Below are positions 16,433-64,000 of a DNA stretch of 64,000 bases, piece by piece. The DNA is from an uncultured Gammaproteobacteria bacterium. GTDB lineage: Bacteria; Patescibacteriota; Microgenomatia; UBA10105; UBA927. The DNA is taken from contig CAZVTT010000003.1 in assembly GCA_964629685.1 (NCBI GenBank), positions 22,038-86,037 on the forward strand, given 5' to 3'. Within the stretch, counting starts at the first letter, position 1. Each line of letters opens with the position of its first letter. The position numbers and the translations under genes are program-made. Under the pieces are notes generated by a model. That model saw only the letters and a program-made list of their open reading frames with translations. It made no database searches and was not told the origin of the DNA.

Positions 16433-18271
16433 ATGCCAATGATCTCGCTTCCGTGGGCATTCATGCTTGCAATACTATCCCAAATCAGCGCACTCATTGC
16501 TGGTGTGGGAATAGTACTCTTCCCGGGACTTCCGCTCTCTGCACTCATACCGCAAACGGATAAAAATGTCGGCGTACGGATTTTACCCGTTATAGCGTTA
16601 TCACTGAGTACCTGGATTGCCGTGTTCACCCTCCTGAAATTCATTGCACTGCCGCTGGATGTCTGCATCTTTAGCATTCTACTGATCTCAATGGCGGTAT
16701 GGATTATCCGTCTTTCCGTCAGGAAGACACGTATCCGGGTAATTCGGCCGGACATTTGGATGTGTGGCGTAGGACTTATACTTTCGCTCCTCTTCGGGCA
16801 GCTTGCCGTTTCACTCATAGCCCCGTCCGGAGGAGACATGGCCACCCACAGTTATATTGCACGGCTTATATTGGAAAAAAACACCTATCCTGATTCGTAT
16901 GAGCCACTCATACCTATCCGTCATTTCGGCTCGTACAGCAGCGGAATGCCGCTCGTTATTGCCGTAGTATCACGCACACTGAATATTCCCATTTATACCG
17001 GCGCACTGCTGGTTACCATTGCCACCTATGTCTGGTTCGGATTATCCCTATACTATTTTCTGCAACACTTCTTCCCCCGCCCTATCAGTGCGGGTACGGC
17101 ACTTTTCGCAACCTTGTGTAGCCCGGCTGTACTGTACTATCTCCCCTGGGGCGGAAATCCGACGGTACTTTCACTTGGATTTTTAGTGCAGGCGATCACA
17201 CTCAGTCTGGAACTTCTGTCCGCACACAAAACGTCTCTTTCCGTTCGTGCGGCTATACTGCCGGGTTTGGTATTTTTCGCGTCATTTGCGACACATCATA
17301 TTCCGTTCATTGCATCGCTCTACGCGTTGATACCGATACTGATCGGATACGCGTTGCAAAGCACCGGAAAACGGTTTTTCTTTCGTTTTACGCTGACACT
17401 TGCGGGAACGCTTGCCCTCCTCAGCATACCGTTTTTCTTGGATGTGAAGTACCCCAGTCCGGCGACGCTGGAACTCATCCGCGACTGGCAACGCGGAGAC
17501 CATGGTCACGTCTGGCGCGGCACACTATCGACAATTATTCCTACGCTGCCGCTCTATCTGATGGATAGATTGGGTTCGTTGACGATGGCTGCAGCCACAG
17601 GAGCGTTACTGGTCACGCTGTTTATCCGCCGTAAAATACCCACGTGGTTCGTTTGGACGCTGGGTATGGGAATATTCGGCATCATAAATTCCCGATACTG
17701 GCTGCTTCCGCTTTCACCATTATTATATCCGGAGCGGATAAGCACGATCCTCATTATTCCCTTTTCGTGGTCTATCGCTCTGGGAATTACCGAAAGTATT
17801 CAGGTACTAAAACGACTCAAACCGAACGGCATAGGGATCGTACTTGGCAGTATCGGTATATCCGTTATCATTTGGGGAAGTATCCCCGCTTTCAGGCACA
17901 ATTTCTCGGAAACTATCGCCCGTAGCCAAGCAGAAACATCCGTGACGGGTGATGACCTCCGGGCAATACTGTGGATTGCCGCCAATACTCCAGCCCATGC
18001 AATTATTGCCAATAACTACGGGGACGCAGGAATATGGATTCCCGCTATTGCCTACCGGAAAGTTACCTATAATGATGCAAACCCGTATGATTTTGATGAA
18101 CTGTTCGCTGCCCAAAGACTCCTGACACCTACATATATGTATATAGGAGCAAAAATTGTCTATTCGCAGGGTGATCATCTGCGTTTCACGATCTCTTCAC
18201 CGGAAATACGAAACGCGAGCCCCGTCTTTCGATCAGGAAACGCCCGTGTTTTCCCCCTGTTTTCACCATGA
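16433..18271 (+). CDS. Polytopic membrane protein (GT-C-like architecture), function unknown
   Basis: 612 aa with more than 12 hydrophobic helices. Divergent from the CH array. A candidate -10 TACAAT lies at about 16409. The stop overlaps the start of the next gene (ATGA). Confidence 0.45.
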   Translation: MPMISLPWAFMLAILSQISALIAGVGIVLFPGLPLSALIPQTDKNVGVRILPVIALSLSTWIAVFTLLKFIALPLDVCIFSILLISMAVWIIRLSVRKTRIRVIRPDIWMCGVGLILSLLFGQLAVSLIAPSGGDMATHSYIARLILEKNTYPDSYEPLIPIRHFGSYSSGMPLVIAVVSRTLNIPIYTGALLVTIATYVWFGLSLYYFLQHFFPRPISAGTALFATLCSPAVLYYLPWGGNPTVLSLGFLVQAITLSLELLSAHKTSLSVRAAILPGLVFFASFATHHIPFIASLYALIPILIGYALQSTGKRFFFRFTLTLAGTLALLSIPFFLDVKYPSPATLELIRDWQRGDHGHVWRGTLSTIIPTLPLYLMDRLGSLTMAAATGALLVTLFIRRKIPTWFVWTLGMGIFGIINSRYWLLPLSPLLYPERISTILIIPFSWSIALGITESIQVLKRLKPNGIGIVLGSIGISVIIWGSIPAFRHNFSETIARSQAETSVTGDDLRAILWIAANTPAHAIIANNYGDAGIWIPAIAYRKVTYNDANPYDFDELFAAQRLLTPTYMYIGAKIVYSQGDHLRFTISSPEIRNASPVFRSGNARVFPLFSP

Positions 18272-18999
18272 AAAAATTCTGTGTCATTATTCCGGCATTT
18301 AACGAAGCGGCTACCATAGCCGGGGTCATCAAAAACATCCAAAAACACTATCCGACATGTGCACTCATCGTCGTTGATGACGGATCAACGGATAACACCG
18401 CACAGATAGCCGGAGATCTGGGGGTGCTTGTCGTCCGTCATACAACCAACCGGGGAATCGGTGCAGCCGTGCAAACGGGTTTACGCACAGCCATCGCACA
18501 GCGTTACTCTACCGTGGTTCAATGCGATGCGGATGGTCAACATGACCCGGCAGAAATGAACACGCTCCTGCAGGCAGCTGCGGATTCCGTCGCACTCGTC
18601 ATCGGCAACAGATTCGGAAACCCGAAAACCTATGCTTCGCCGCTATCCCGCAGGTGGGGTTCCCGGCTATGTACCGCAGTGTTATATTGCTGTTTTGGTC
18701 GTCCGGCGATATCCGATCCCACGTCAGGATTTCGCCTCTATACCGGACCGGCTCTGCCGTTGTTTGCCGCAAATTACCCACGTCATCTTCCGGAACCGGA
18801 ATCAATTGCACTCGTCCTGAAACACGGACACCGTATCCGCGAAGTTCCCGTGGTTATGCATCAGCGTCAGGGCGGCATCTCATCAATAACCAACCGCAAG
18901 GCACTCTTCTTGCTCTTTGCAATACCTTTTGGCATACTGTGGATCGCGTATACCGGCACGCTTTTTGCGTGGCCGCACGAACGACGCACACAGGCATGA
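18268..18999 (+). CDS. Family 2 glycosyltransferase (polyprenyl-phosphate sugar synthase-like)
   Basis: N-terminus FCVIIPAFNEAATI. VVDDGSTDNT. Acidic motif QCDADGQHD. 4-nt ATGA overlap with both neighbours. Confidence 0.75.
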   Translation: MKKFCVIIPAFNEAATIAGVIKNIQKHYPTCALIVVDDGSTDNTAQIAGDLGVLVVRHTTNRGIGAAVQTGLRTAIAQRYSTVVQCDADGQHDPAEMNTLLQAAADSVALVIGNRFGNPKTYASPLSRRWGSRLCTAVLYCCFGRPAISDPTSGFRLYTGPALPLFAANYPRHLPEPESIALVLKHGHRIREVPVVMHQRQGGISSITNRKALFLLFAIPFGILWIAYTGTLFAWPHERRTQA

Positions 19000-20285
19000 A
19001 ACCAACTTCACCAGCAGCCGTCACCATCATCGGATTAGGGTACGTTGGCTTTCCGCTCGCGGCTGCCCTATCCTCCGGGACAGATACCACTGTCTACGGT
19101 CTGATCACGTCACAAGAAAAAGCCGGACGGATTACCGATAAAACGTACAACCCCGATATTCCCGGTTTTTCCTGGAAAGGAATTACCATTACCGCCACCA
19201 CTTCCCCGGAAACCTGCCTGCCGCACTCGGATGTGATCGTGGTTTGTGTCCCCACACCGGTATCTGCACGCCATAAACCGGATATCACGGCACTAAAATC
19301 TGTGCTGAAAACAATCGGCAGGCATCTGCACTCAGGTCAACTTATCATCATCGAATCCACTGTGGGACCGGGAATGATGGAACAGGTATGCATCCCGCTG
19401 TTGGAACGCTCCGGTTTCCGGGCAGGACAACAGTTTGACGTCTCATATTGTCCGGAACGGATAAATCCCGGAGATACTGTGCATCCGCTTACCAAAATCC
19501 CCCGCATTGTCGCTTCCACGTCACCCGCCGGTTTAACCAAAACAACCCGATTTTATGAACGGATAATCCGTGCCCCGATCGTGCCGGTACAATCCTTCGG
19601 CATCGCCGAAACGGCAAAGATGTTGGAAAATGCGTTCCGTGATGTAAACATGGCCCTTATCCATGAATTTGCACTGGCCTGTGAAACATTACGCATACCG
19701 ATTGCGGACGTGATTGCTGCAGCTGCCACGAAACCATTTGGCTTTATGCCATTTTATCCGCGTACCGGCGTCGGTGGGGATTGTATTCCGGTAGACCCGT
19801 GGTATCAGATAGATGCAGGCAACCGACATGGTTTTTCTCATAGGCTGCTCACTACCGCCAGAACCATAAATGCGTCCTATCCCAAAAGCATCACGACATA
19901 CGTACGAAACCTGTGTCGGCATCACCGCATAAATCCTAAGCGCCATGCTGTCGGCATATATGGACTATCATACAAATCCGGAACCAAAAGTCTGTCAAAT
20001 AGTCCGGCACGTATTATCGCAAAGCAATTACGAAAAATATTCCGGGTGCATACCTACGACGACGCACATCCGGAACTTTCTACGGTAAACACCGTGTATG
20101 ATTTGGTAAATACCTGCCGCGTACTGGTTGTCTGTACGGACGATCCGTTGGCACTGGAAGCTCTCGCAGAACTCCTGCACGGAAAAACCTCAGTTACGTT
20201 GCTCATAGACGGAAGTTATACGTTACGCAGTCAGCTTGCGGATATTTCTCATATCACGGTAACAGGCATCGGTATACCGGAGTAG
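18996..20285 (+). CDS. UDP-sugar 6-dehydrogenase family (UDP-glucose/GDP-mannose dehydrogenase-like)
   Basis: Track ORF is 18654..20285, but its first 114 codons overlap the GT2 gene. Start placed at the Met at 18996 (MKPTSPAAVTIIGLGYVGFPLAAAL, a Rossmann GxGxxG). Catalytic-Cys motif GVGGDCIPVDP. Confidence 0.7.
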   Translation: MKPTSPAAVTIIGLGYVGFPLAAALSSGTDTTVYGLITSQEKAGRITDKTYNPDIPGFSWKGITITATTSPETCLPHSDVIVVCVPTPVSARHKPDITALKSVLKTIGRHLHSGQLIIIESTVGPGMMEQVCIPLLERSGFRAGQQFDVSYCPERINPGDTVHPLTKIPRIVASTSPAGLTKTTRFYERIIRAPIVPVQSFGIAETAKMLENAFRDVNMALIHEFALACETLRIPIADVIAAAATKPFGFMPFYPRTGVGGDCIPVDPWYQIDAGNRHGFSHRLLTTARTINASYPKSITTYVRNLCRHHRINPKRHAVGIYGLSYKSGTKSLSNSPARIIAKQLRKIFRVHTYDDAHPELSTVNTVYDLVNTCRVLVVCTDDPLALEALAELLHGKTSVTLLIDGSYTLRSQLADISHITVTGIGIPE

Positions 20286-20291
20286 ACACCG

Positions 20292-20915
20292 TTACTTTAA
20301 CCGAAACTCCACCTGCATGGATTTACCGTTGGAAAGACGGATCGGAAAATCTTCATCCTGATCCAGATTTCTGTTGCCGTTTACATCTTTTACTCCCAAA
20401 GCCAACATTCTGGCACCTGCCGGTAACGGAGCATATTCCTTGGCGCTATCATTTAACTTAATAGAGAAATCTATATATGTATCAGGCTCCAAATAAATGG
20501 TCGATGCGACAATCAGTACACCGTTGTTAAAATCAAACCACTTAACCACTAAAAAACCCGGCTCGGGAAGTACTAATTTCTTCACTCGTATACTGTTTTC
20601 TACAACCTGATCTTCTATTTCTATCGGGACGATATCCTGCTGGACCCGGGAATATCTCCAGTACGCAAAACCACCACCCGCGGTAGCCACCAATACGATA
20701 AGTATCACGGATACTAACAGCCAGGGGAACCGTTTTCCCGACGAAACCGCCGGAGAAACCGGAGGAGGCACCGGCGGCAGCGGAGCCGCAACCGGAGGCG
20801 TTGCCGGTGTCTGATACTGAATCTGCGGCGCGTACGGTGGCGGTGCAGCCGGCACGGGAACAACCCCGGAGGTATCCGGCGCAGGCATTGGGCTCTGCGG
20901 GGCAGGTTGATCCAT
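20292..20915 (-). CDS. Membrane-anchored protein with Pro-rich cytoplasmic N-terminus and an extracytoplasmic domain shared with 32737 and 33788
   Basis: 207 aa. PAPQSPMPAP..PPPYAPQ N-terminus. TM WLLVSVILIVLVATAGGGFAYW. Shared motif VLPEPGFLVVKW. Confidence 0.5.
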   Translation of the reverse strand: MDQPAPQSPMPAPDTSGVVPVPAAPPPYAPQIQYQTPATPPVAAPLPPVPPPVSPAVSSGKRFPWLLVSVILIVLVATAGGGFAYWRYSRVQQDIVPIEIEDQVVENSIRVKKLVLPEPGFLVVKWFDFNNGVLIVASTIYLEPDTYIDFSIKLNDSAKEYAPLPAGARMLALGVKDVNGNRNLDQDEDFPIRLSNGKSMQVEFRLK

Positions 20916-20995: not shown

Positions 20996-22078
20996 TTACG
21001 GCTGCGGTGGCTGAAACGTCCGGAGAAACTGATTACATGCATTCTGTTCACCCGCTTCAACCTCGTTACAAATCGCCAATCCATGTCTCAGCAACGCGTC
21101 GGACATTACACTCTTGGTTAATGCACCTTCTATACAAATACGTGTATCAACTGTATCCGTAAAAAGTTCACAAAAACCCACTATCTTCTCTGCGTTCCCC
21201 TTATGCTCGAAATACATCTCCTGACCAAGAACGGAGATACACCCCAGTCGCTCAAAATCCGGTACAACGTTACATGTACGGATTGCGAGATCATATGAAC
21301 GGGTTCGCCAATAGGTCAACATACCCGACCGCCAATAACAGACTTTCCGGACCAACGGATCAAGGCTCATACAAAAACCCAATGGATCTTCAGGAATCGG
21401 TTCGGTTTCATGTCCGAAACTCGATGCTTCAAATCGTTCCATTAACAACCCACTCATACAATGCTGTCTCTCGGCATCCTGAGAAAATTTGGCACAATAC
21501 TGTTGACCCTTCACTACGCTTGCAAGTCTGTTTCCTATTGCATGACCCAACGCGTGTATACACGGATAAATCTCGGGAGAGACACGACAAAGATGCGTAT
21601 ATTCCGTGTCAAAAAAGTCCGGCGTTAAGGTACCGTCTACTACGCCCATATAGCAACCGTATCCACACATGGGAGTACATTGCGCAAACGCCGTTTCCGG
21701 ATCACGCAGCAATCTAACGGCCGACTCACCGGCCTGATGGGCAAAATCGTGGCAACGTGATATACCGCCACTATCAGCATTATCTGAACGATTATATTCC
21801 TCCTCCGCTACCAGCAGCACTGTACGCAATCCAAAATCATGAATTGCCGTAAAAAGGGGTTTCTTCCAACAGGAATTCCATTCCGTTCGATTACCTAAAA
21901 ACCGTTCGCATGTATTCCAGTGTGCTTCTATATACTGTCTGGCGTCCGTATTTGCTTTGTACTGAGTCCATTGATCGAAATAAGCAAAAATGCCCATCAC
22001 ACAAAAAACAAGAATCATTACGGACAACGCTCGATGACGCAGATTAATGTGTTTCAGGATATGATGCATAAGAAGCAC
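20996..22078 (-). CDS. CH-family secreted Cys/His-rich repeat protein (subfamily F)
   Basis: 360 aa. Anchor ALSVMILVFCVMGIFAYF. Motifs RCHDFAHQAG, CGYGCYMGVVDG, PCIHALGHAIG. Divergent from the 22192 gene. Paralog of 27140 and 29961. Confidence 0.6.
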   Translation of the reverse strand: MLLMHHILKHINLRHRALSVMILVFCVMGIFAYFDQWTQYKANTDARQYIEAHWNTCERFLGNRTEWNSCWKKPLFTAIHDFGLRTVLLVAEEEYNRSDNADSGGISRCHDFAHQAGESAVRLLRDPETAFAQCTPMCGYGCYMGVVDGTLTPDFFDTEYTHLCRVSPEIYPCIHALGHAIGNRLASVVKGQQYCAKFSQDAERQHCMSGLLMERFEASSFGHETEPIPEDPLGFCMSLDPLVRKVCYWRSGMLTYWRTRSYDLAIRTCNVVPDFERLGCISVLGQEMYFEHKGNAEKIVGFCELFTDTVDTRICIEGALTKSVMSDALLRHGLAICNEVEAGEQNACNQFLRTFQPPQP

Positions 22079-22191
22079 TTGATGGTAATCATAAAAGATA
22101 GCTACTATCTCATCATAGTAGAGAGATAGTTAAACTCAAAAACCCCATGAATACAATTGCGTTTACACTACGGGAAATAAACACCCGTATC

Positions 22192-23772
22192 ATGCCGAAA
22201 CTTAACGAGGTACTGCGTAATCTTATTTTCCGGTATACCCATTTACCGCTGTGGACACTGGCCTTGGGATTCATGTGTCTTGTCTTAATCGGCCGTATAC
22301 CGCTTTTAAAATCCCCCACGCTTCCCATTAACGACGGAGGACTTTTTATCCCTGTTGTCAGAATGATACGGACGAACCCGCTTAGTTATCCCCAAAATAT
22401 GGGGTACAACCTCCCTATTCCCTTTGCTTACCCACCCCTGGGCATGTATCTGCTCGCAGCAATTTCTGCAGTCATTCCGAATGCAGAACTTCCGTTGTTT
22501 ACCCTCACACCATTTATTATTGCAATACTCTGCATCCCGCTCTTTTTTTTATTGGCATATTACCTGACAAAATCACGATCCATTGCCGGAATCGCTACGC
22601 TTATTACCGCCATTATCCCGGAAAGTTATCAGTGGATAATCATGGGAGCGGGTATCACCCGGGCTACAGGTGCTTTTTTTGCACTGTGCACCTTGGTAGC
22701 TGTAGTACTCTGGCAACAAAAACCGTCGAGACTGTTGTTTTGTCTGATAGGATTATTTTGCGGACTGGTATTCTTATCGCATCCGGATACATCCGTTTTT
22801 ATCGTTTATTCCGTTTGTATTTTTATACTTACAGATCAAACCGAAACACTTGTTCAACGGATACTTACCATTATGGGTATTCTGGGGATAGGCGGTATCA
22901 TCGCAGCCCCATGGCCTATACGGGTTATCACCTTCCATGGATTTACCCCGTATGCGTTTGTCGCTGAACTCCGACAACACAATGGTTTTCCGATGGAAAA
23001 TCTTATTTGGATACTGAGTAACGAACTCCAATATCGACTCCTGCTTGTTTCTGCGGCAAGTGGAATACTAATTGCCTATTTTACGAAATACAGAAGACTC
23101 ATCATCTGGGCAGCTGTCGTTCTCGTAGCAAGAGCAACCTCCATGATTTCATTCGATGTTTTTCCATTAGCACTCTTAGCCGGTATAGGGTTAACTACTC
23201 TACCGGTAATCTTCACAAAACAGATATACCGACAAACGTATAAAGCAATAGTAATCATGTTTCTGCTTTTCTCGTTCCCATGGTCAGTACAAACGGTATC
23301 GGAACGGTTTACCAGATTAAGATCCGATGATATCAGTGCACTTGAATGGGTCAAACAATTTACTCCGCAGTCTGCACGGTTTATTCTCATTTCATCACAA
23401 CCGGATTGGTGGAAGGATGCAGTACCGGAATGGTTTCCGGCGATTACTGGACGAATAAGTCTGGTTACCGTACAAGGCTCCGAATGGACTCCATTCACCG
23501 AACATCACCGTACCATCCTGTTCCATCAGGCAATCCGGCGCTGTAATCAAAGCACAATAGCTTGTATAGAATCTGCAGCAACTTTAGCAGCACTACCGTT
23601 TTCTCATCTCTATCTCGTAAAACACAAAGATCAACCCGGAGTTGGAGATTATTGTCCTCTGCTTCTGCATTCAATACGTAATTCCGCTAATTATCGGGTA
23701 ATTTTTGGAAATGAAGCAGCAGAAATATGGGAAAGAACAGACACACTCCCCAGCTCTAAACCTTCCACTTGA
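22192..23772 (+). CDS. Polytopic membrane protein, NDGG-loop family (GT-C-like); paralog of 28411..29955
   Basis: Track ORF starts at 22147. Start moved to the Met at 22192 (MPKLNEVL) from alignment with the paralog and because a TACAAT box at about 22152 lies downstream of 22147. Motif LPINDGGLFIPVV. C-terminus KDQPGVGDYCPLLLHSIRNS is shared with the paralog. Confidence 0.5.
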   Translation: MPKLNEVLRNLIFRYTHLPLWTLALGFMCLVLIGRIPLLKSPTLPINDGGLFIPVVRMIRTNPLSYPQNMGYNLPIPFAYPPLGMYLLAAISAVIPNAELPLFTLTPFIIAILCIPLFFLLAYYLTKSRSIAGIATLITAIIPESYQWIIMGAGITRATGAFFALCTLVAVVLWQQKPSRLLFCLIGLFCGLVFLSHPDTSVFIVYSVCIFILTDQTETLVQRILTIMGILGIGGIIAAPWPIRVITFHGFTPYAFVAELRQHNGFPMENLIWILSNELQYRLLLVSAASGILIAYFTKYRRLIIWAAVVLVARATSMISFDVFPLALLAGIGLTTLPVIFTKQIYRQTYKAIVIMFLLFSFPWSVQTVSERFTRLRSDDISALEWVKQFTPQSARFILISSQPDWWKDAVPEWFPAITGRISLVTVQGSEWTPFTEHHRTILFHQAIRRCNQSTIACIESAATLAALPFSHLYLVKHKDQPGVGDYCPLLLHSIRNSANYRVIFGNEAAEIWERTDTLPSSKPST

Positions 23773-23841: not shown

Positions 23842-24405
23842 ATGGCAAAATCTAAAGACGTTAAACCTGAGCCACAAAAAGCTCCATCGAATATTCCCGT
23901 GTTTTTTGTCATCGGTATCGTCCTCGTCGGAGCAGCAGCCTGGTGGTACAGTACCGGATACAAAGGTCCGAAAATAGGATCTCCCAAAGTTACCGTTACC
24001 CCACCACCCGACGGTTCAGGAGTACCGACCGGTCCAACCCCCACGCCAACGATGACGGAATTATTTCAGGGTGAACTTTCCTATACCATTGGGTATAGCT
24101 CAGACGCCAAAGGACCAAAAACCCGACAGGCGCTCTTTCAACCGCATGCACCAAAGCAGGGAGCGGAACAAACCATTACCGTAGACGTTTCACATACGGC
24201 GCCCGTAGACAGCGTAGAAATGACCGTCCTGACGGATACGAAATCAGTGACCGTTCCCATGAACATGATTTCCGGCTCGAAAACAGACGGAAAATGGCAG
24301 GCAAAATGGAAAGTAAACGATACCTATAACTACAAATTTATTTTCCAGTTTACCAGCAAAAGCGGTTCCCTTACGGACGTAGCCAGTGTGGGTATCCGCC
24401 AATAA
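23842..24405 (+). CDS. Membrane-anchored secreted hypothetical protein
   Basis: 187 aa. TM IPVFFVIGIVLVGAAAWWY. Pro/Thr-rich linker PPPDGSGVPTGPTPTPT. Immediately upstream of the Hint-domain gene. Confidence 0.5.
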   Translation: MAKSKDVKPEPQKAPSNIPVFFVIGIVLVGAAAWWYSTGYKGPKIGSPKVTVTPPPDGSGVPTGPTPTPTMTELFQGELSYTIGYSSDAKGPKTRQALFQPHAPKQGAEQTITVDVSHTAPVDSVEMTVLTDTKSVTVPMNMISGSKTDGKWQAKWKVNDTYNYKFIFQFTSKSGSLTDVASVGIRQ

Positions 24406-56002: not shown

Positions 56003-57772
56003 TTACGGCGCTTTATATATCCGGAAGAACGTATTCTGGTACACTTCTTCCAACATCGGATACAGTTCATTCAAATCTATCTTTCCCCCATTCATTTCCA
56101 TTTCCTCCGGACCATACAGTATGTAGGATATACCCTGTTGTCGAAGCCAGGCCAGTTCCTCCTGAACGGATAACCGCTGTACAAAAAAGTTCGTTACCGC
56201 CGCCTGTTTAATTTCCAGATTCACCGTATTGGCATGCCCGACAAATGTGGTATTCCCGCTGTATACCGGAAGATAGTTACTGGTCGCATGTCCGGCCAGT
56301 ACTACGGCATCCCGGGGCGTATATGTTTCCAGCCAGATACTGGCTTCTATTAAATCTTTTAACGGATACATCACGCTGGCGCCGGTCGGAACCAACGGTA
56401 CATCCGCCCGCATCTTGTGATCCACAAAATCCTTCAGCCACATAAACGACGATGCCATCGTCCCTAGTCCGAACAGAATACACAATGCCGGAACAACAAA
56501 AACGGCGGCCGAAATCCGTTTCACCTTCACTTTTTTCTGCACCATCTCTTTTAGCTGGGCAAACAGATACATCGTTAAAATTCCCAATGGCACCTGCGGC
56601 ATCATCTGCCCGAACCGGGACGGTGATTGCTGCGGAATTTTGGTAAATATAAACATGAGCGTAAGCCAGGCAATTACCCAGGTTACGACAATCCGTAACC
56701 GTTTGGCGTCGCGCGATCCGAAATTTATCAGCAGCAGTATTCCCCCGAGTACCCCCAGTGGGAACGTAGGTCCGAGGGCCATAAAATATTCCCAGAAGGT
56801 AAACGGAGCTTTTACGATGGTGTCGTATTCCACCAGTCGCTTCCAGGGGTATTGCGACATGAGCAAAGAAAAATACAGAAATGTGGGGATAGATAATATA
56901 CCGAATAGTACCCGGCCGGCAAAATGATGCACGGCCCAGTGCCGCAACCACTTTACATATTCTTTCATCGTTTTACCCGTCCCGATGGTATACAGCCACC
57001 CCCAGAACAATTCACCGATAGTCAGGACAAACAGTAAAAAGTACAGGAAAAACAGTACCGGCGGGAAAATAATTCCTAATATAATCCCTACTATTCCCAG
57101 AAATATATAATTTCCGGGATGCACTATTTTGCCGCTTACCCGGGATATAAACCCACCTGCCAGTACCCAGGCGATGAACAACAGCAATGCCTGCCCCACC
57201 AACACGTGCGGCAGAAATAAGATCCTTTGCAGACTGTCTATCTGTGTCCACCACGGCATATATCCGCCAAAACGCGGATACCCTGCCACCATTTCAAATT
57301 TAGGCCAGGTCGAAGCCGTAATCACCAGAATATAGGTAAATATCTGTGTCCGGAATCCGTCGGTATGCCACTCCACAAACTTCCATAATACAAACAGCAA
57401 AAACACGCCGAAAAACACCCGCATCGTGTGATACGCAAACCAGAGGTACGGCGTCTGCACATGCGACCAGTCTGCCACTTTCCCGATCATCACATACAGT
57501 ATCTGCAGGAGGCTGGGATCATGTGCTTCACTGGTGTACTTTTCTTTTGCCAGCCAGGCGCCTTCTTTCCCCTGCCGTATACGGGATAAATAAAAGTTAT
57601 AGTCCGTTGGGAAATTATGGACCAGTTCAAAAAAACGGATCGGTTTCGTTTTATCTTTAATGGACCATTCGTACATGGTTGGCGAAAATCCGACCAAGGT
57701 AAAAAAGCAGATCACCAAAAACACAATCGCAAAACGTACACGGGTAGAATGTAAGAGGGTCATACGTGCCAT
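56003..57772 (-). CDS. Polytopic membrane protein, C-terminal YxFYG family (GT-C-like)
   Basis: 589 aa with more than 12 TM helices. C-terminus LAWLRQQGISYILYGPEEMEMNGG..LYPMLEEVYQNTFFRIYKAP. Confidence 0.5.
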   Translation of the reverse strand: MARMTLLHSTRVRFAIVFLVICFFTLVGFSPTMYEWSIKDKTKPIRFFELVHNFPTDYNFYLSRIRQGKEGAWLAKEKYTSEAHDPSLLQILYVMIGKVADWSHVQTPYLWFAYHTMRVFFGVFLLFVLWKFVEWHTDGFRTQIFTYILVITASTWPKFEMVAGYPRFGGYMPWWTQIDSLQRILFLPHVLVGQALLLFIAWVLAGGFISRVSGKIVHPGNYIFLGIVGIILGIIFPPVLFFLYFLLFVLTIGELFWGWLYTIGTGKTMKEYVKWLRHWAVHHFAGRVLFGILSIPTFLYFSLLMSQYPWKRLVEYDTIVKAPFTFWEYFMALGPTFPLGVLGGILLLINFGSRDAKRLRIVVTWVIAWLTLMFIFTKIPQQSPSRFGQMMPQVPLGILTMYLFAQLKEMVQKKVKVKRISAAVFVVPALCILFGLGTMASSFMWLKDFVDHKMRADVPLVPTGASVMYPLKDLIEASIWLETYTPRDAVVLAGHATSNYLPVYSGNTTFVGHANTVNLEIKQAAVTNFFVQRLSVQEELAWLRQQGISYILYGPEEMEMNGGKIDLNELYPMLEEVYQNTFFRIYKAP

Positions 57773-57879: not shown

Positions 57880-58623
57880 ATGGAGGCAGATCAAACAAGC
57901 GCAAGCGACGAACAACAACAGTTAAGTTCCCTTATTAAAGTTGCCGCCATCGCCGGTGTAGGCGGATTATTACTTTTAGGCTTCATCGTTATCCAGTACA
58001 GTTTCGCCAAAAAACGTGACGGCACAGTCGTTTTACCCGCAGGTACCACCTATCTGGGTCCGTCAAACTCTCCTACCGATGCTCCGGCTACCAGCGCACC
58101 AGAGCCAGCCGCACCAAAAGTTACTTATCCGGATACCGATAAATGGGTTACCAATAAAGGGAAAAAATATCCGTATACTTTTCAGACGCCGCAAAGCATG
58201 GAACTGGTCACCTTCCCCGACGACATATACGATATATACGCCATTAAATGGGGAAATATATTGCCGCAGTCAAACGTACTCATCGGTGTTGATAATTTAC
58301 GGAACGACGAAAAGAAAAAAGCATACATTAGCGGTTCCAAGCGCACCTATGTAAACGAATGGTGGAAACAATTTTCCGGACTCAAGGGTGTCAGCTCCAT
58401 CGAAGAATTCGTCAACAGTAAAGGGTTAAAAGGCTACCGGGTAAAATACCTGAACGGTTCCGGTCAATCTCCCAACGACGATATTTTCTTTGAAATTCAG
58501 GGCAAACCGGAATACGTTATCCATCTGGCGAGCGGTATTCTGGACATAGACCTTTTCAATAAAATAGTAGATACGGTTGGTTGGCCAGGAGCAGCAGCAC
58601 CTACCGCAGAACCTACACCATAA
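57880..58623 (+). CDS. Membrane-anchored secreted hypothetical protein
   Basis: 247 aa. TM VAAIAGVGGLLLLGFIVIQY. Pro/Ala/Ser linker PSNSPTDAPATSAPEPAAP. Confidence 0.5.
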   Translation: MEADQTSASDEQQQLSSLIKVAAIAGVGGLLLLGFIVIQYSFAKKRDGTVVLPAGTTYLGPSNSPTDAPATSAPEPAAPKVTYPDTDKWVTNKGKKYPYTFQTPQSMELVTFPDDIYDIYAIKWGNILPQSNVLIGVDNLRNDEKKKAYISGSKRTYVNEWWKQFSGLKGVSSIEEFVNSKGLKGYRVKYLNGSGQSPNDDIFFEIQGKPEYVIHLASGILDIDLFNKIVDTVGWPGAAAPTAEPTP

Positions 58624-58696: not shown

Positions 58697-60310
58697 ATGG
58701 AACTGTTGTTCACTGCCGGAATAATCGGTATCGCCGCCGTTGTAAATATCCTGAACTTTATTGTCGGCATGCGGAATACCCCGCCGGGAAATATTTTTCT
58801 GGGTACCATCCACCACCCGCAGGATTATTTTTATTACCTCTCCCAATTCGTTCAGGGAAATACCCATTGGTTTTTGAGTCGTAATTTGTATACCAACGAC
58901 TTTCCTACCGCTACCGCCGTTGGGTGGGTAAACGTACTTATGGGAAAAATTCTTGGTTGGTTTGGACTTACCTACCAATGGTCGTATGCTGCCGCAGTAA
59001 TCATCACCACCATTGTTTTTCTTAGTACCGTCACCTATTTCATACGTATCGCGCTGCCGCAAAAATCAGCCGCGTTCAGCCGTTGGTTGGCACTTTTGTT
59101 TTTTTTGATCAGCAATACGGTTCCTACGTCTCTCTTCGGCGCATCAACAGGAGCCCATACGTACTGGAATAATTACGGTGAACCGTTTGTCCGGTTGGGT
59201 GGCGTACCCCATCACCTGCTGATGCATACCATGGTAGTGCTCTGTCTGTTGTGTACGGCTTTACTCATCAAAGCCCGCACACCCCGCAGCATTATCGGAC
59301 AGAGCATTGCCTTGGCTGCAGCAACATTTACCCTGGCCGGAATAAATCCGGTGCAGTGGGTTTGGACCGGAGCTGCCATCGGTATTACCGTTACCGGTGT
59401 TACTGCATTTACCCTTTTCCGGCATCGCGCCCACCTCCGTAGTGTCGTTAAACATCTCCTCCTCACCATGCTGCCGATTTGTATTGTGCTTATGGCCGGA
59501 TTACCCATGGCCGTGTACCTGAAACAATTATTTTCGCTATCACCGTATACCCAGCTCAGTGCCTGGGAATTTACCCAGAACATAAAACTTACCCTCCCCG
59601 GATTATTGCTTTCAGGGGGTCCCGTAGTGATGTTGGGAATACTCGGAATTCCGATCTTTCTCCGGAACCATACCCTTCCACGGATACTGGTGTTTGTCTA
59701 CGCCTTGGGATCGCTTACTGTGTTTCTGTCGCCTTTACCCCAGGCGATGCACCTCAGTAATGTCAGATTTGTTTCCGGCATCACCATTCTGTTTTTTGCC
59801 CTGTCAGCAGCGGAATTAAGCACGCAACTACTCCATCGGCGCGAAAAGCTCGTACACATTCCTGCAGGAATACTGGTTGCCGCCATCATTATTACCTGTC
59901 TCATACCGTTGCGGGCACAGATACAGGACAGAATTACGCTTGATCCCAAAAATGCTTTCCTGTATGTCCCGACTGCCGTTATGCAGGGATACGCGGAAGT
60001 TATCAGGCAAACGCCACCGGATGCCACCATCCTGGTCTTCTGGCCGTTTGAAGCATCTTTACCGGCATTTACCGGCAGACAAATCTATTTCGGTCATCCG
60101 TTACTTACCAGCGATTTTGACCGGAAAAGCGGTGAAGCATATTTCTTTATAGACAAGCGCATGACACAGGAAGAAATGGCAGACTTTCTGAAACGGAACC
60201 GCATTGGCTATTTATTCGGATTCAATAATACGATTCCCCCGCAGCCGCTCTATGACATACTCTACAAAAACGAACTCATCTCCCTCTACAAAGTCCGCCC
60301 GATTCACTAG
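58697..60310 (+). CDS. Polytopic membrane protein, C-terminal YxFYG family (GT-C-like)
   Basis: 537 aa with more than 12 TM helices. C-terminus MTQEEMADFLKRNRIGYLFGFNNT..LYDILYKNELISLYKVRPI. Confidence 0.5.
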   Translation: MELLFTAGIIGIAAVVNILNFIVGMRNTPPGNIFLGTIHHPQDYFYYLSQFVQGNTHWFLSRNLYTNDFPTATAVGWVNVLMGKILGWFGLTYQWSYAAAVIITTIVFLSTVTYFIRIALPQKSAAFSRWLALLFFLISNTVPTSLFGASTGAHTYWNNYGEPFVRLGGVPHHLLMHTMVVLCLLCTALLIKARTPRSIIGQSIALAAATFTLAGINPVQWVWTGAAIGITVTGVTAFTLFRHRAHLRSVVKHLLLTMLPICIVLMAGLPMAVYLKQLFSLSPYTQLSAWEFTQNIKLTLPGLLLSGGPVVMLGILGIPIFLRNHTLPRILVFVYALGSLTVFLSPLPQAMHLSNVRFVSGITILFFALSAAELSTQLLHRREKLVHIPAGILVAAIIITCLIPLRAQIQDRITLDPKNAFLYVPTAVMQGYAEVIRQTPPDATILVFWPFEASLPAFTGRQIYFGHPLLTSDFDRKSGEAYFFIDKRMTQEEMADFLKRNRIGYLFGFNNTIPPQPLYDILYKNELISLYKVRPIH

Positions 60311-60312: not shown

Positions 60313-61908
60313 CTATTCCGCACAGCGGTATGCGTAATCCACCGCATAAATGGTGGTACTGCCGAATGATTTAAAGGGTTTTAAGAACGGATACGATCCC
60401 ACCGCTATGCCGGCAGTCTGTTCGTCAAACCCGTAAAATACACCAGCAAATTTGTTGGCTTTCAGCAGGTCGTATGCTTCGCATGTATCCATACCCCGAA
60501 AAAACGTATAGGCATTTCCGGCTTTCGTTTCGTACTGTAACGTAATAAATTCCCGGCCAAAGTAAACGAATCTACCAGCCAGTCCCGGAATATAGGTACT
60601 GGTAAACTTCATGGCAAATATCGGGCCCGGCGGCAACTCCCGTAACGCCTGCATCCCCTGGCCCCATTCCTGTCTGGGCGCATCATAATCGTTCGCCACG
60701 GGTAACAGCGCATCATATGCAGCGTATGCATTCGGATACCCGATAAAAGTAACCGCCAGTACCATCACCAGGCACACCACTCCTACCGCATGCCCGAAAC
60801 GCGCAACCGCCGCTTCCAACCCTGCTACCGCCAATACTCCCAACGGAATCCAGACGGCGTGCTGCAAAAACCGCACGTTCGATATGGGAATCTGCCGCAG
60901 CAGTGGCCAGGGGATATCCAACGTTCTGCGGGCAATATCTACGGAAAGAATGGATAACCATGCCCACAGCATAAACAGCAAAAGTTCCGGTTTTTTCCGG
61001 ACAACAAATACGCTGCCAAATGCCAATACTACAATCGGTCCCAATGCTAAAAGATACTCTTTCATGGATACCGCAAACGACAGGGATTCGTAGCCTACTT
61101 CTATCGGAAACAGTTCCATCTGGCGTTGAATAAACAACAGTGTTGCCACCGCGGCCACACATACAAAAGTCAGTACCGGGAGCAACCTAAACCGACGTCT
61201 GAGTACTATATATATAGGAAGGATCATCAGGAGAATTACCACGCTTGGGGGATGAATAATTCCTCCGGCTATTACTAGCGGTACTGCACCCAGTAACCAT
61301 TTGCCAGAACGGGTACGCGTACACTGTAACGTCAACAGTACCACCGCTACTACGACCATATGACCCAGCACATGGTGCGGTAAAAAGTATGCCCGGTGAA
61401 TCGGATCCAGTTCCGTCCACCAACTCATGTACCACTGTGTTGTCCACCCATTTCCCGCCTTCACCACATTCGGAATACTCGTGCTAAAAAGAAATGTGCC
61501 GAACGCGAGTATCCGCCACTGCCATCGTTTAAACATAAACGCCGCCAGCGCATATAACAAAACAAACCAGGAAATACCCACCAGGAGGGTGGCTGCGTGA
61601 TACACCACTTGGGCATCGGTTATACCGAAAAATCTTCCCACTTGGCCAAAGCACAAAAATATCCAGTAAAAGACTGTCCCCGACTGCGGTTCAATCGCAA
61701 ATGAATTCTGGACCAACCAGTTACCGTTTAATCCCTGCTGTATGTAATCCAAATACACGGGATAATCGCTTCTGCTGTTATGTATGGCCAAAAAAACTCT
61801 GTCTGCCGGCCTATGAATCCACCGGTTTACCCACGGAGCGTAGTGGATCACGGTAATCGCTAAAACCATGGTAAGTACTAACAGTAGTTCTCTGCGGCGG
61901 ATAGGCAT
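60313..61908 (-). CDS. Polytopic membrane protein, C-terminal YxFYG family (GT-C-like)
   Basis: 531 aa with more than 12 TM helices. C-terminus CEAYDLLKANKFAGVFYGFDEQTAG..YPFLKPFKSFGSTTIYAVDY. Convergent with 58697. Confidence 0.5.
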   Translation of the reverse strand: MPIRRRELLLVLTMVLAITVIHYAPWVNRWIHRPADRVFLAIHNSRSDYPVYLDYIQQGLNGNWLVQNSFAIEPQSGTVFYWIFLCFGQVGRFFGITDAQVVYHAATLLVGISWFVLLYALAAFMFKRWQWRILAFGTFLFSTSIPNVVKAGNGWTTQWYMSWWTELDPIHRAYFLPHHVLGHMVVVAVVLLTLQCTRTRSGKWLLGAVPLVIAGGIIHPPSVVILLMILPIYIVLRRRFRLLPVLTFVCVAAVATLLFIQRQMELFPIEVGYESLSFAVSMKEYLLALGPIVVLAFGSVFVVRKKPELLLFMLWAWLSILSVDIARRTLDIPWPLLRQIPISNVRFLQHAVWIPLGVLAVAGLEAAVARFGHAVGVVCLVMVLAVTFIGYPNAYAAYDALLPVANDYDAPRQEWGQGMQALRELPPGPIFAMKFTSTYIPGLAGRFVYFGREFITLQYETKAGNAYTFFRGMDTCEAYDLLKANKFAGVFYGFDEQTAGIAVGSYPFLKPFKSFGSTTIYAVDYAYRCAE

Positions 61909-62025
61909 ACTTCACTATCGTACCATCCGAACACGGATCTTCCCACCACACGTCAGAACGCCCGCAGTCTTATGTACAATACCTGCGGTATTTAGTATAA
62001 GTAAGTGCATTGGTTGAGTTCTTAT

Positions 62026-62766
62026 ATGAAGGTAGGAATTATTATCCCCGTCCGGCGGGAAGAACAGAATATTGTTCGTACGCTTACGGAAATAAGTAGC
62101 CGGACAAAAATTAACCACACGATTTACGTGGTGGACGACAGTGTGGACGCAACAGACAAAACCCCCGCCGTAGTTGCCAAATACAGCCGTACCCACAAAC
62201 AGGTGCGGTTAATCCGGAAGCAAAAAAAAGATCCCTCAGGTTTTGCCCCGGCACTTTTCCGCGGACTGGTTGCCGCCAGGGAACCGTATATTCTTTTTGT
62301 AATGGCAGATTGTTGTGACGAGCCGGAAACGATAGCAGCCATGACGGAAAAAATGCAGGAAGGGTATCACGTTGTCTGCGGTTCCCGTTATATGCGCGGC
62401 GGAAAAAAATCCGGCGGTCCGGCTGTTCAGAACTTTTTTTCCACACTGGTAAATCTTACATTAAAATGTATTGCAAACCTCCCGACTCACGACGCTACCA
62501 ATTCTTTTAAGCTCATCAACCGACAAGTATTATTGAAACATTACCGCGAAATGTATTCTCCGGGATTTGAAATTTCCCTGGAGATCCTGCTTCGGTTATA
62601 CTTTCATGGATACCGTATTGCGGAAGTCCCGACACACTGGCGTGGCAGGACAATTGGTCTTTCCAAATTTAAAATTGCCGAACGCACGCCAAAGTACGGA
62701 CGTTTGTATCTGTTTGCTCTCTCCAAGCAGCTGGAGAAAATTACCCGCCCATCGTCTGCATCATAG
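62026..62766 (+). CDS. Family 2 glycosyltransferase (Dpm1-like)
   Basis: The track ORF starts at a GTG at 62005. ATG at 62026 (MKVGIIIPVRREEQNI). VVDDSVDATD. Acidic motif MADCCDEPE. Confidence 0.65.
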   Translation: MKVGIIIPVRREEQNIVRTLTEISSRTKINHTIYVVDDSVDATDKTPAVVAKYSRTHKQVRLIRKQKKDPSGFAPALFRGLVAAREPYILFVMADCCDEPETIAAMTEKMQEGYHVVCGSRYMRGGKKSGGPAVQNFFSTLVNLTLKCIANLPTHDATNSFKLINRQVLLKHYREMYSPGFEISLEILLRLYFHGYRIAEVPTHWRGRTIGLSKFKIAERTPKYGRLYLFALSKQLEKITRPSSAS

Positions 62767-62871
62767 TGGTAGAACACGTAGCAGCTTTTTGTATTGCACT
62801 GGTTAACGGACTATCCGTCTGGCATTATCCGGCGGAACGGGTAGTCAAATATCTTCCGTTCATTCCGGCTA

Positions 62872-64000
62872 TGCTACTCCTATGGTATTTTTACCGACTT
62901 GTTACCGGACAATCCGTCAGGCCGGTAGCCACCACTCCCCGACCCCGTTTGGTTTCAATGGGAATCTGGTTAGTCATTTGCTGCATTACCATGCTGGCTT
63001 TCGGACTGCGCGCATATCACCGCGGTGTGCAACCATACTGGTGGGACGAACTTCTCACGGTCTGGGTCAGTGAAGCACCCATTCCGATCCTGCTCCGTAC
63101 ATTAAATGCTGCTACATCCAATGCAACAGACTTAAACCCTCCGTTGTTTTACCTGTTAACACACCTGTGGATGAATGTATCATCACCGAAAGAAGGAGAT
63201 GTCCGACTGCTCAGTGCCGTTATCGGCGCGCTTACCGTACCCGTCATCGTCCTGTTGGGAGAAACGTTATTCTCGCTCACCGTGGGATTGGCTGCCGGAG
63301 TGTTATTTGCCCTGTCACCACTCGCCATTTACTACGGCTTTCAGACCAGAAATTATTCCCTGCTTACATTCCTGGCAGCGGCCTCGGCACTCACCTGGTA
63401 CCGGCTCTGGAAGCAACCGGACAGACGTCGGGCTGTTGCTGTTCTGGTGGTAAATACCGCCGTACTCTTTACGCACTATGCCGGTATTTGGTTTACGGGC
63501 AGCATGGTTTTGGCCACCGGGCTGCAGTTGGCACGCGGAATCCGCAGTGTAGTACTACCCCGCACAGATCGTCTGTTTTCATTTCTGCGATTATGTACCG
63601 GGTTTATCGGATTATTTGTGTTAGGCATATTAGCCTTCCGTATGTTTCCGTCACTGTATCATCGTGGTATTGTCTGGGGAATTTCACCGTGGACAGTTAC
63701 CTTATTTCTCCCGCTCGCAATCCTACTGGCTACAGTACTCCCGCCGCTTACCGTACAAAACACACCCAAATTCCGACCGCTGCTCCTTGCCGTTATCGCC
63801 ATCGGTATCGGCTTTCTGGTAAGCTTTGCCCCCTGGTTTATATCCACGGGAGTATGGAAAACGGTTGCCGATCAGGGAAAAGAAAAGCTGACCTCGGAAC
63901 TCTTCTTTACGCATCTCAGTCAACTGGCAGGACTATATGATTCCCAAAACGTCAGGGCAGGGCCCAGTATGTTCAGTATCTGGATTTTTCTGGTGGCTGC
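62872..64000 (+). CDS. GT-C glycosyltransferase, PMT/ArnT-like; 5' partial, continues beyond the window
   Basis: The frame is open to the window end, so it is absent from the ORF track. TM1 MGIWLVICCITMLAFGLRAY is followed by the loop motif HRGVQPYWWDELLTVW, typical of GT39/ArnT. Many TM helices follow. Start uncertain: a Met at about 62872 or 62958. Confidence 0.45.

Follow-up and report, generated by a model that had tools for sequence, protein, structure and literature searches.

Introduction

Members of the candidate phyla radiation (CPR; Patescibacteria) are ultrasmall bacteria with reduced genomes, and the cultivated members are attached to host bacteria. In the Corynebacterineae, the GT-C glycosyltransferase systems of the cell envelope (EmbA/B/C, AftA-D, PimE, MptA-C; PpgS (Rv3631) with Rv3779; Ppm1) use polyprenyl-phosphate-sugars and assemble glycopolymers stepwise outside the membrane. 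Here we analysed a stretch of 64,000 nucleotides of DNA with a G+C content of about 48% (the window), most of which is taken up by an island of predicted GT-C genes. To our knowledge, a multiplication of GT-C genes on this scale is otherwise known mainly from the mycobacterial and corynebacterial envelope. In Gram-positive bacteria, multi-component transmembrane glycosylation systems such as CsbB/GtcA/YfhO, GtlA/GtlB, CsdAB-EF and GtsABC combine a GT-A enzyme, a flippase and a GT-C enzyme (PMC8035078). In Firmicutes, the acceptors of these three-component systems are lipoteichoic acid, wall teichoic acid and rhamnan. Protein O-glycosylation by a GT-A and a GT-C enzyme has been described for actinobacterial Ppm1/Pmt (PMC8698208) and for streptococcal GtrB/PgtC2 (PMC12041528). 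For the CPR, our literature searches found no paper on GT-C glycosyltransferases, GT-C expansion or surface glycosylation, and in a Microgenomates genome paper 29 glycosyl transferases are merely counted (PMC7143001).

We consider it rather probable that the window belongs to a Gottesmanbacteria-like bacterium (Microgenomates, CPR) and carries an island for glycosylation outside the membrane, typical of this lineage but here longer than usual, in which polyprenyl-phosphate-sugars made by GT2 enzymes would be used by many GT-C enzymes, presumably for the most part on a glycopolymer. In the Gram-positive systems a GT2 enzyme makes a polyprenyl-phosphate-monosaccharide, a polytopic GT-C enzyme transfers the sugar outside the membrane and the GT-A and GT-C genes are adjacent, as is predicted for the island; in both, the GT-C sequences are highly divergent and are recognised mainly by their fold and a modified DxD loop (PMC8035078). 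The island differs in size, with at least 13 GT-C and five GT2 genes compared to one to three pairs per genome (PMC8035078), in the lack of a GtrA/Wzx flippase gene, and in its GT-C families, most of which are neither YfhO nor classical PMT_2. Similarities to the Corynebacterineae were found as well: the GT-C family designated G3 below has AftA among its best structural matches, PpgS is the best match of the GT2 enzyme 18268, and some GT-C enzymes of related loci carry carbohydrate-binding modules like AftD and Emb. In contrast to the Corynebacterineae, the island has no sequence-level members of GT53, GT85, GT87 or GT89, and its genes are not scattered but lie together. We know of no arabinogalactan or lipoarabinomannan pathway in the island organism, which presumably has a reduced genome of about 1 Mb. 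The working principle, lipid-linked monosaccharide donors used by GT-C enzymes outside the membrane, is already known, and no new principle is demonstrated here.

Results

Genes are named by their start coordinate in the window. Between 16.4 and 64 kb we counted about 38 genes, of which about 25 (roughly two thirds of the 48 kb) are related to glycosylation. A first-pass annotation of this DNA had listed 14 polytopic genes and expected at least ten GT-C-like proteins among them. All 14 are present as long open reading frames (ORFs) of 510-620 aa with 8-11 hydrophobic segments each. Their starts shifted slightly: 22147 or 22192 and 28357 or 28411 are possible, gene 48079 truly starts at its M13 (48115), as shown by homologues and an exact database entry, and the last gene, which continues beyond the end of the window, starts at 62871 and not at 62872. 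Two further polytopic genes, 6489 (-) and 34335 (+), bring the total to 16, again with 8-11 hydrophobic segments throughout. A GT-C fold is supported for 13 of them, namely by Pfam family PMT_2 for three, by membership of the family modelled with AlphaFold for four, and by paralogy or hhalign links of 90-100% for the rest; 6489 is a probable further member, and 31098 and 34335 are unclassified. The 13 predicted GT-C enzymes span about seven sequence families. In an all-against-all comparison three paralogue groups emerged, G1 (22147/28357, 42% identity), G2 (36211/39082) and G3 (46185/56003/58697/60313). The polytopic genes are the following, where CH stands for a family of anchored Cys/His-rich proteins.

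6489-8069 (-): probable PMT_2-like GT-C, 526 aa, about 10 transmembrane segments, within the CH gene array (hhalign, homologues)
16433-18271 (+): GT-C, 612 aa, DUF6541-like, first gene of a three-gene operon (hhalign to G3, PF20176 in homologues)
22147-23772 (+): GT-C, group G1 (identity to 28357, hhalign to G3)
25576-27132 (+): GT-C, PMT_2 family (PF13231, 45.1 bits)
28357-29955 (+): GT-C, group G1 (hhalign to G3)
31098-32765 (-): polytopic protein, 555 aa, about 8 transmembrane segments followed by a soluble C-terminal domain, resembling GT-C enzymes in architecture only
34335-36200 (+): polytopic membrane domain with C-terminal tetratricopeptide repeats (TPR), unclassified (TPR Pfam matches)
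36211-37917 (-): GT-C, PMT_2 family, group G2, WDEP in loop 1 (PF13231, 29.6 bits)
39082-40782 (-): GT-C, group G2, paralogue of 36211, WDEP (BLAST 1e-24 to 36211)
40779-42338 (-): GT-C, member of a large 'hypothetical protein' family of Gottesmanbacteria, FFD-x-DE loop (hhalign to G3)
46185-47807 (+): GT-C, divergent member of group G3 (phmmer 1e-7 to 56003; hhalign 100% to the G3 profile)
48115-49611 (+): GT-C with a Cys-rich extracytoplasmic loop ahead of the last two transmembrane helices (hhalign)
56003-57772 (-): GT-C, group G3 (paralogy; orthologues of up to 870 bits in relatives)
58697-60310 (+): GT-C, group G3 (paralogy)
60313-61908 (-): GT-C, group G3, the modelled member (AlphaFold2, Foldseek)
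62871-64000 (+): GT-C, PMT_2 family, WWDE, gene cut by the window end (PF13231, 36.4 bits)

The structural anchor of this assignment is G3. Its profile matched 6,709 cluster representatives (clusters at 50% identity) with E <= 0.001 in a library of 1.8 billion proteins. Neither Pfam nor NCBIfam has a model for this family, no Pfam GT-C family was matched by any of 88 diverse members, and the few members with a name in their source are labelled 'hypothetical protein'. The AlphaFold2 model of 60313, built with 100 homologues, reached a mean pLDDT of 95.2 and a pTM of 0.94. When compared with the PDB by Foldseek, this model matched with probability 1.0 only GT-C enzymes, i.e. yeast and human STT3, archaeal AglB, PglB, the C-mannosyltransferase DPY19 and the arabinosyltransferase AftA (E 2e-7 to 9e-5, TM-score 0.45-0.59), followed by Emb and Pmt. 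Transporters and G protein-coupled receptors appeared only with E > 0.3 and TM-scores of about 0.1. Residue D48, which follows the first transmembrane helix (TM1) by 16 residues and lies where the first helix of the external loop begins, is kept in 88 of 89 G3 sequences, and it is a candidate for the catalytic Asp since GT-C enzymes hold their catalytic Asp at that position. Further residues conserved in at least 90% are Y52, R172, P177-H178 and R346. A large GT-C family beyond Pfam and NCBIfam thereby obtains a high-confidence model and a candidate catalytic residue.

Judged by this model, G3 appears structurally nearest to oligosaccharyltransferases (OSTs), DPY19 and AftA rather than to PMT. 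The OSTs STT3, AglB and PglB (GT66) are among its best structural matches (TMq 0.50-0.56; AftA, TM-score 0.59), and the model shows the OST-type overall fold with a C-terminal alpha/beta domain and, as in GT66, an Asp at the start of the external-loop-1 helix. The similarity of the C-terminal domain is weak at the profile level: isolated OST C-terminal domains were matched with E 0.0019 (AglB-S1, 3vu0), 0.11 (STT3) and 0.2 (AglB-S2), with 2lgz and 3vgp as the other PDB entries concerned. Unlike GT66 enzymes, G3 proteins are smaller (about 530 aa), show no STT3 Pfam domain in the 88 members and lack the WWDYG motif; the profile column aligned to 'SWWDYGN' of AglB reads 'LalepaGniiPa' (L-x5-G-x2-IPA). 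To judge from the GT2 genes next to G3 genes, the donor is more likely a single sugar on a monophosphate than an oligosaccharide on a diphosphate.

For the remaining polytopic proteins, Pfam gave little: PMT_2 (PF13231, cut-off 26.1 bits) was exceeded by three of the 16 (25576, 36211 and 62871), and ten had no Pfam match at E <= 0.01. The NCBIfam search yielded nothing meaningful for 15, and 62871 alone showed weak mannosyltransferase and Agl23 matches. We relied on profile-profile comparison with G3 as the structurally anchored reference. Homologues were collected first; with alignments of one to three sequences, hhalign found no links in an all-against-all comparison, even between two PMT_2-positive proteins. 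The GT-C set was then linked at 90-100%, in alignments of 160-500 columns that take in the catalytic loop as well as the C-terminal domain. Hydrophobic composition does not explain these links, since the 34335 family, which is likewise polytopic, scored at most 29% against every GT-C profile. In 15 of the 16 proteins loop 1 carries an acidic motif, 10-25 residues behind TM1. The WDEP and WWDE motifs noted earlier in three of them were found exactly as described (aa 54-57 in 36211, aa 35-38 in 39082 and aa 57-60 in 62871), and 40779 carries DIDE. The DE-type motif is not specific for PMT, since it is also common to ArnT-like PMT_2 proteins.

The G1 proteins reached 96.2% (22147) and 96.4% (28357) against G3. 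In Pfam, 22147 scored 21.3 bits with PMT_2, below the cut-off, and 28357 missed PTPS_related by 0.1 bits (26.3 compared to a cut-off of 26.4) and showed a weak DUF6541 match. With its five homologues, two of which carry DUF6541 (PF20176), 16433 aligned to the G3 profile over 470 columns (98.8%, E 9e-17); this family has an invariant D135 and a C-terminal NNYGDAG motif. G2 scored 90-93% against G3 with shallow alignments (39082, 93%) and 97.8% with 38 sequences, and the deep 36211 profile reached 100% against the 40779 family. A pooled query of four unrelated proteins returned only the 40779 family, with 171 homologues at E <= 0.001, and one of the 120 listed carries PMT_2. In the alignment of 84 sequences of this family, all 'hypothetical', D39, D41 and E42 are invariant; it scored 95.7% against G3, with its FFD-x-DE loop aligned on the D48 loop, and 100% against G2. 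The 48079 profile (22 sequences from metagenomic loci; loop-1 motif IPDSFFY) was linked to the 40779 family (98.3%), to the G2/PMT_2 group (98.0%) and to G3 (91%), and a metagenome scan with the 48079 pair returned nothing. PDB searches found nothing, neither with the single sequences of 16433 and 40779 nor with profiles of 16433, 40779, 34335 and 31098.

The protein 6489 is a probable PMT_2-like GT-C by sequence comparison: it scored 80.8% against the 36211/39082 profile, has WWGD in loop 1 and no Pfam match of its own, and two homologues match PMT_2 under the threshold (E 7e-4 and 2e-3). Searches of Pfam, NCBIfam and the PDB returned nothing for 31098, and its hhalign scores stayed at or below 50% against every GT-C profile. 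It has a single homologue, with which it shares the loop-1 sequence PVWDxWVF, and a viral-contig scan with this pair returned nothing. In the 34335 family (19 sequences), a G-V-G ... W-N loop motif is invariant. The layout of a polytopic N-terminal part and C-terminal TPR is that of TMTC1-4 (PMC7801869). In contrast to TMTC1-4, no relation of the membrane domain to PMT_2, to DUF1736 or to any of the tested GT-C profiles could be detected; Pfam and PDB searches gave no match for it, and a GT-C Pfam domain is absent from 34335 and from seven homologues. An O-antigen ligase (Wzy_C) and a TMTC member were considered as identities and found no support, as neither 34335 nor the seven homologues gave such a Pfam match and hhalign found no link to GT-C profiles. 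A 34335-like gene is present in 20 of 87 related loci (e.g. L032:3619-5583, L060:15515-17413), usually beside a membrane-anchored GT2 gene like 37871, and its product may have a role like that of a ligase, polymerase or flippase.

Taken by sequence, the enzymes are best placed in the GT-C superfamily, in neither PMT/GT39 nor OST/GT66. Several may be assigned loosely to PMT_2. In the window no protein exceeds the PF02366 cut-off of 22.7 bits (25576 scored 20.0), and neither MIR nor PMT_4TMC was detected by Pfam. G3, the 40779 and 48079 families and the DUF6541-like 16433 are poorly described or undescribed families. That the polytopic proteins are instead transporters or other membrane proteins sharing no more than a hydrophobic composition is highly improbable. 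This explanation would account for the scarce Pfam and NCBIfam matches described above and for the two proteins left unclassified after all tests. It conflicts with the exclusive GT-C matches of the 60313 model at probability 1.0, with profile alignments that cover soluble domains and the catalytic loop, with the conserved acidic loop-1 residue and with the linkage to GT2 and sugar-nucleotide genes, and for the 13 supported proteins it is already refuted. Among the 14 proteins first listed, 13 were thus not assigned to transporter or non-glycosyltransferase families, and 31098 stayed unclassified.

The enzymes that could supply the donors are encoded in the same region.

18268-18999 (+): GT2, polyprenyl-phosphate-sugar synthase-like (PF00535, 87.5 bits)
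18996-20285 (+): nucleoside diphosphate (NDP)-sugar 6-dehydrogenase (TIGR03026, three UDPG_MGDP_dh Pfam domains)
37871-38905 (-): GT2 with three C-terminal transmembrane helices (PF00535, 108 bits)
43195-43665 (+): hexapeptide sugar N-acetyltransferase, NeuD/PglD/VioB-like (Hexapep Pfam, TIGR03570 best)
43782-44909 (+): DegT-type NDP-sugar C4 aminotransferase (PF01041, 380 bits)
44962-45948 (+): NDP-hexose 4,6-dehydratase-like short-chain dehydrogenase/reductase (SDR) (Epimerase and GDP_Man_Dehyd Pfam)
51937-52767 (-): SDR epimerase/reductase, overlapping GT2 gene 52730 (PF01370, 147 bits)
52730-53464 (-): GT2, polyprenyl-phosphate-sugar synthase-like (PF00535)
53527-54288 (+): GT2, polyprenyl-phosphate-sugar synthase-like (PF00535)
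62005-62766 (+): GT2, dolichyl-phosphate (Dol-P)-hexose transferase/PgfS/AglJ-like (PF00535, 87.9 bits)

The five GT2 enzymes, expected to be Dpm1-like from the first inspection, scored 76-108 bits with PF00535 and do resemble Dpm1, PpgS, ArnC and AglJ. For the four short ones (18268, 52730, 53527 and 62005) the best full-length NCBIfam matches are polyprenyl- or dolichyl-phosphate-sugar synthases: PpgS, followed by AglJ and Dol-P-hexose transferase for 18268; ArnC, PgfS, PpgS and Dol-P-hexose transferase for 52730; and PgfS, ArnC and PpgS for 53527. The fifth, 37871, has transmembrane segments at aa 254, 275 and 313 and thus a GtrB/CsbB-like architecture. GT2 genes adjoin or overlap GT-C genes three times, in 37871/36211, in 62005/62871 and in the module 16433/18268/18996, where 18268 overlaps both neighbours by 4 bp. 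Such defined GT2/GT-C modules are suited for heterologous reconstitution.

The sugar-tailoring genes named earlier, a dehydrogenase, a hexapeptide acetyltransferase, a DegT enzyme and two SDR epimerases/dehydratases, were all confirmed by Pfam and NCBIfam. With 293.7 bits for TIGR03026 (cut-off 189.8) and WecC-type and TviB models next, 18996 is predicted to be an NDP-sugar 6-dehydrogenase nearest to UDP-ManNAc and UDP-GlcNAc dehydrogenases. The genes 43195, 43782 and 44962 are contiguous on one strand as acetyltransferase, C4-aminotransferase and 4,6-dehydratase, and the same trio occurs in a related 10-kb contig (L012). In NCBIfam, 43782 is nearest to PseC, ArnB and WecE, and 44962 matches LegB and RmlB best. 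By these similarities the trio fits the classical route to an NDP-4-acetamido-4,6-dideoxyhexose (PglFED/VioAB/WecE-type). Of the acetamido or amino uronic sugar that had been suggested, the similarities favour the former, as 4-acetamido-4,6-dideoxyhexose; with the separate NDP-N-acetylhexosamine (HexNAc) 6-dehydrogenase the genes do not make up a clear single amino-uronic pathway. The SDR gene 51937 is syntenic in L012 and in a related 23-kb NCBI contig (L003). Besides, a small glyoxalase/VOC-family gene (42732-43097) lies between the GT-C operon and the amino-sugar genes and has the same place in L012.

To assess conservation we examined eight genome loci and 75 metagenome loci of relatives; occurrence counts are given out of 87 loci. 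Both L003 (about 60% identity) and L012 share their gene order with the 39-62 kb part of the window. Relatives hold three to seven GT-C genes per 20 kb, so the GT-C density is typical of the lineage. What is special to the window is the length of the island, which measures at least 48 kb and is still running at the window edge, and its extra paralogues. Several families recur, each in part of the loci: 58697- and 56003-like G3 proteins (60313-like ones are rarer), 57880, GT-C enzymes of the 39082/36211 and 40779 types, one or two short GT2s, hexapeptide/DegT/dehydratase genes, the membrane-anchored GT2 and the 34335-like TPR protein. Counts were 34/87 for 37871-like, 21/87 for 52730-like, 12/87 for 57880-like and 11/87 for 60313-like genes. 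The G3 paralogues form a 1:1:1 triad in relatives. Further polytopic families of the related loci were linked to GT-C profiles by hhalign at 88-99%. Moreover, the island of relatives encodes a GT87-like polytopic protein fused to a C-terminal NPCBM/NEW2 carbohydrate-binding domain and a weakly YfhO-like protein of about 850 aa (coordinates of these proteins: L003:1794-3698, L005:5405-7288, L004:4112-6745).

Such variation raises the question of a variable surface-glycan or antigen island, in which paralogues would have expanded by diversification (phage or host evasion, strain-specific attachment) and many members would be alternative or redundant decorators outside any single pathway. The window indeed holds more members than its syntenic relatives, the G1/CH pairs are recent duplications, foreign insertions lie inside the island (Fic and DUF695/RraB genes at 0.41 GC; orphan 54383), and gene content around the conserved core varies among the loci. 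Nevertheless, the core (G3, 57880, 40779, 39082/36211, the membrane-anchored GT2 and 34335) recurs, in part of the loci, at 30-60% identity across distant relatives, which indicates that much of the island has a housekeeping function, and we give this explanation little credence. Phase-variation repeats and invertible elements were not seen, although no search was aimed at them.

The insertions were recognised as such because they are absent from syntenic contigs. The Fic/DOC gene and the DUF695 and RraB-domain gene (49662-51632) are missing from L003 and L012. The orphan 54383-55999, a 538-aa soluble protein encoded between 53527 and 56003, is missing from L003; it has no Pfam match and one negligible NCBIfam match, and local GC and AT skew deviate.

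Several proteins of the window have named homologues from metagenome-assembled genomes of Candidatus Gottesmanbacteria or Patescibacteria, and seven have exact counterparts on an NCBI contig of 155 kb. An archaeal origin, prompted by DUF7282 and by AglJ/Agl23-like matches, was ruled out by these homologues. The GC skew of the + strand lies between -0.03 and -0.18 in all 2-kb bins across 1-64000, irrespective of gene strand, so that the cumulative skew drops linearly along the window and the + strand is C-rich. A one-sided G/C disparity has likewise been described for complete Microgenomates (UBA1400) genomes (PMC7143001).

Discussion

The GT2 genes, the many GT-C genes and the sugar-tailoring genes fit the GT-A, flippase and GT-C logic of the known systems. 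Among the window proteins, Pfam and NCBIfam recognised no initiating phosphoglycosyl transferase, no Wzx and no Wzy, which favours monosaccharide-lipid donors. The analysis shows the folds and families of the proteins, their conserved acidic loop residues, and the linkage and synteny of their genes; from these we infer lipid-linked donors, membrane sidedness, sequential action and acceptor identity. In the proposed scheme, cytoplasmic enzymes would tailor nucleotide sugars in a first step: dehydratase, aminotransferase and N-acetyltransferase would yield an NDP-4-acetamido-4,6-dideoxyhexose, the NDP-HexNAc 6-dehydrogenase a HexNAc-uronic acid, and further SDR enzymes are present. The five GT2 (GT-A) enzymes would then attach single sugars to polyprenyl phosphate on the inner side of the membrane, a flippase encoded outside the window would flip the lipid-linked sugars, and at least 13 GT-C enzymes would transfer them, one linkage each, onto acceptors at the outer face. 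That the GT-C enzymes use polyprenyl-phosphate-linked sugars is suggested by their fold and by the linkage of their genes to Dpm1/PpgS-like GT2 genes.

As to the acceptor, we lean, by analogy with the Corynebacterineae, towards a glycopolymer or lipoglycan of the cell envelope that is assembled or decorated step by step, because the paralogue sets are fixed and non-redundant and a GT-C of relatives is fused to a carbohydrate-binding module. The conserved G3 triad suggests successive steps or a complex, and the NPCBM fusion indicates a glycan acceptor. Some GT-C enzymes probably also glycosylate anchored surface proteins. Devoting about two thirds of 48 kb to glycosylation and keeping the core in relatives implies that surface glycans are a major investment of these CPR bacteria.

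Several observations weigh against this proposal. The GT2 matches to PpgS, AglJ, ArnC, PgfS and Dol-P-hexose transferase reached 25-97 bits, compared to equivalog cut-offs of 325-529; since all of them stay far below these cut-offs, donor-lipid specificity is an indirect conclusion. The best NCBIfam matches of 37871 are the polysaccharide GT2s EpsD and TuaG. No flippase of the GtrA/Wzx type was found in the window, neither as a Pfam or NCBIfam match nor as a free-standing small ORF with several transmembrane segments, and the window contains no acceptor-synthesis genes. None of its GT-C enzymes has a carbohydrate-binding domain. Furthermore, two features of the neighbouring anchored proteins agree at least as well with a protein acceptor as with a glycopolymer. 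The first is the Pro/Thr-rich linker of 57880, which is of a type typical of O-glycosylated bacterial proteins. The second is the co-duplication of CH and GT-C genes: the divergent pairs 20996/22147 (20996-23772) and 27140/28357 (27140-29955) were duplicated as units, with 41% identity between the CH proteins and 42% between the GT-C enzymes. The genes concerned are listed here.

20996-22078 (-): CH-family anchored Cys/His-rich alpha-solenoid, divergent partner of 22147 (41% identity to 27140)
27140-28318 (-): CH-family protein, divergent partner of 28357 (family alignment)
29961-31079 (-): CH-family protein, directly 3' of 31098 on the same strand (family alignment)
57880-58623 (+): small protein with an N-terminal anchor, a Pro/Thr-rich linker and a conserved domain of about 160 aa (homologues)

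These features raise the question of protein O-glycosylation after the manner of Ppm1/Pmt or GtrB/PgtC2, in which each GT-C paralogue would have a separate family of secreted or anchored proteins as its substrates (CH, DUF7282, and the Pro/Thr-linker proteins 57880, 23842 and 15741). The donor logic would be the same as in these systems, and protein O-glycosylation has a streptococcal precedent (PMC12041528). The PMT_2-type members 36211, 39082, 62871 and 40779 share the DE-type loop 1 (WDEP, WWDE or DIDE), and Pro/Thr/Ser-rich linkers lie beside the membrane anchors of 57880, 23842 and 15741. The protein 57880 has no Pfam match. It and its homologues, which were found beside G3 genes in L003-L009 and later loci, all keep the transmembrane anchor, a 'GTTYLGP' motif and a Pro/Thr-rich linker of conserved composition, and they are always encoded among G3 genes. 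In addition to the co-duplicated pairs, 31098 is directly upstream of CH gene 29961 and 6489 lies inside the CH array. The C-terminal domain of G3 resembles the peptide-binding C-terminal domain of OSTs (3vu0, 2lgz, 3vgp). However, the island has no PMT/GT39 member, G3 is devoid of the OST WWDYG motif, and the number of enzymes is far greater than in any known protein O-glycosylation system. CH proteins contain no Ser/Thr-rich linkers or disordered segments, and instead of the many secreted Ser/Thr/Pro-linker proteins reported by the first-pass annotation we found about four in the window (15741, 23842, 57880 and 20292). Sets of distinct GT-C paralogues conserved 1:1:1 suggest successive steps over parallel substrate-specific enzymes and, together with the NPCBM-fused GT-C, conflict with the idea of one transferase per substrate family. 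A PMT-like system as originally suggested retains some support from the coupling of CH and GT-C genes, whereas the absence of PF02366 and MIR and the closeness of G3 to OST, DPY19 and AftA speak against it. On balance we regard protein O-glycosylation as the principal function as possible but unlikely.

If CH proteins are coupled to GT-C enzymes, they could be partners rather than substrates. This leads to a joint reading in two parts, which we consider distinctly doubtful as a whole. In its first part G3, as a family of about 6,700 clusters that is OST/DPY19-like and free of WWDYG, would supply the catalytic core of a new surface glycosylation machine found throughout the CPR, with three non-redundant paralogues and 57880. 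In its second part the membrane-anchored, disulfide-rich CH proteins would be detachable acceptor-recognition subunits of small GT-C enzymes, i.e. a split TMTC architecture; the pairing and co-duplication of CH and GT-C genes would be explained if this were true. The glycopolymer island with GT2-made donors remains the reading that we prefer.

The CH family comprises fourteen N-terminally anchored paralogues, encoded in 62-15667 (-) and by the three genes listed above. Thirteen Cys are invariant, the motifs CHxxxH, GFYHG and CxHGxGHG recur, and no Pfam family covers these proteins. An AlphaFold2 model (pLDDT 91) shows a disulfide-rich all-alpha solenoid with no specific PDB match. Behind the anchor, four members (62-1579, 2630-4105, 9244-10776 and 10751-12247) have an extra N-terminal cupredoxin-like domain of about 100 aa that contains the motif 'FWPAS(D/N)xHPxH ... 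HDH' and for which Pfam Cupredoxin_1 and NCBIfam pseudoazurin matched only below threshold. Three further anchored proteins belong to DUF7282 (20292-20915, 32737-33783 and 33788-34204), and 20292 has a long Pro-rich segment before its transmembrane helix. Finally, 24386-25516 encodes a secreted or anchored protein with a Thr/Asn-rich N-terminal part, a (YYGYGQG)n repeat and a C-terminal Hint/pretoxin-HINT domain.

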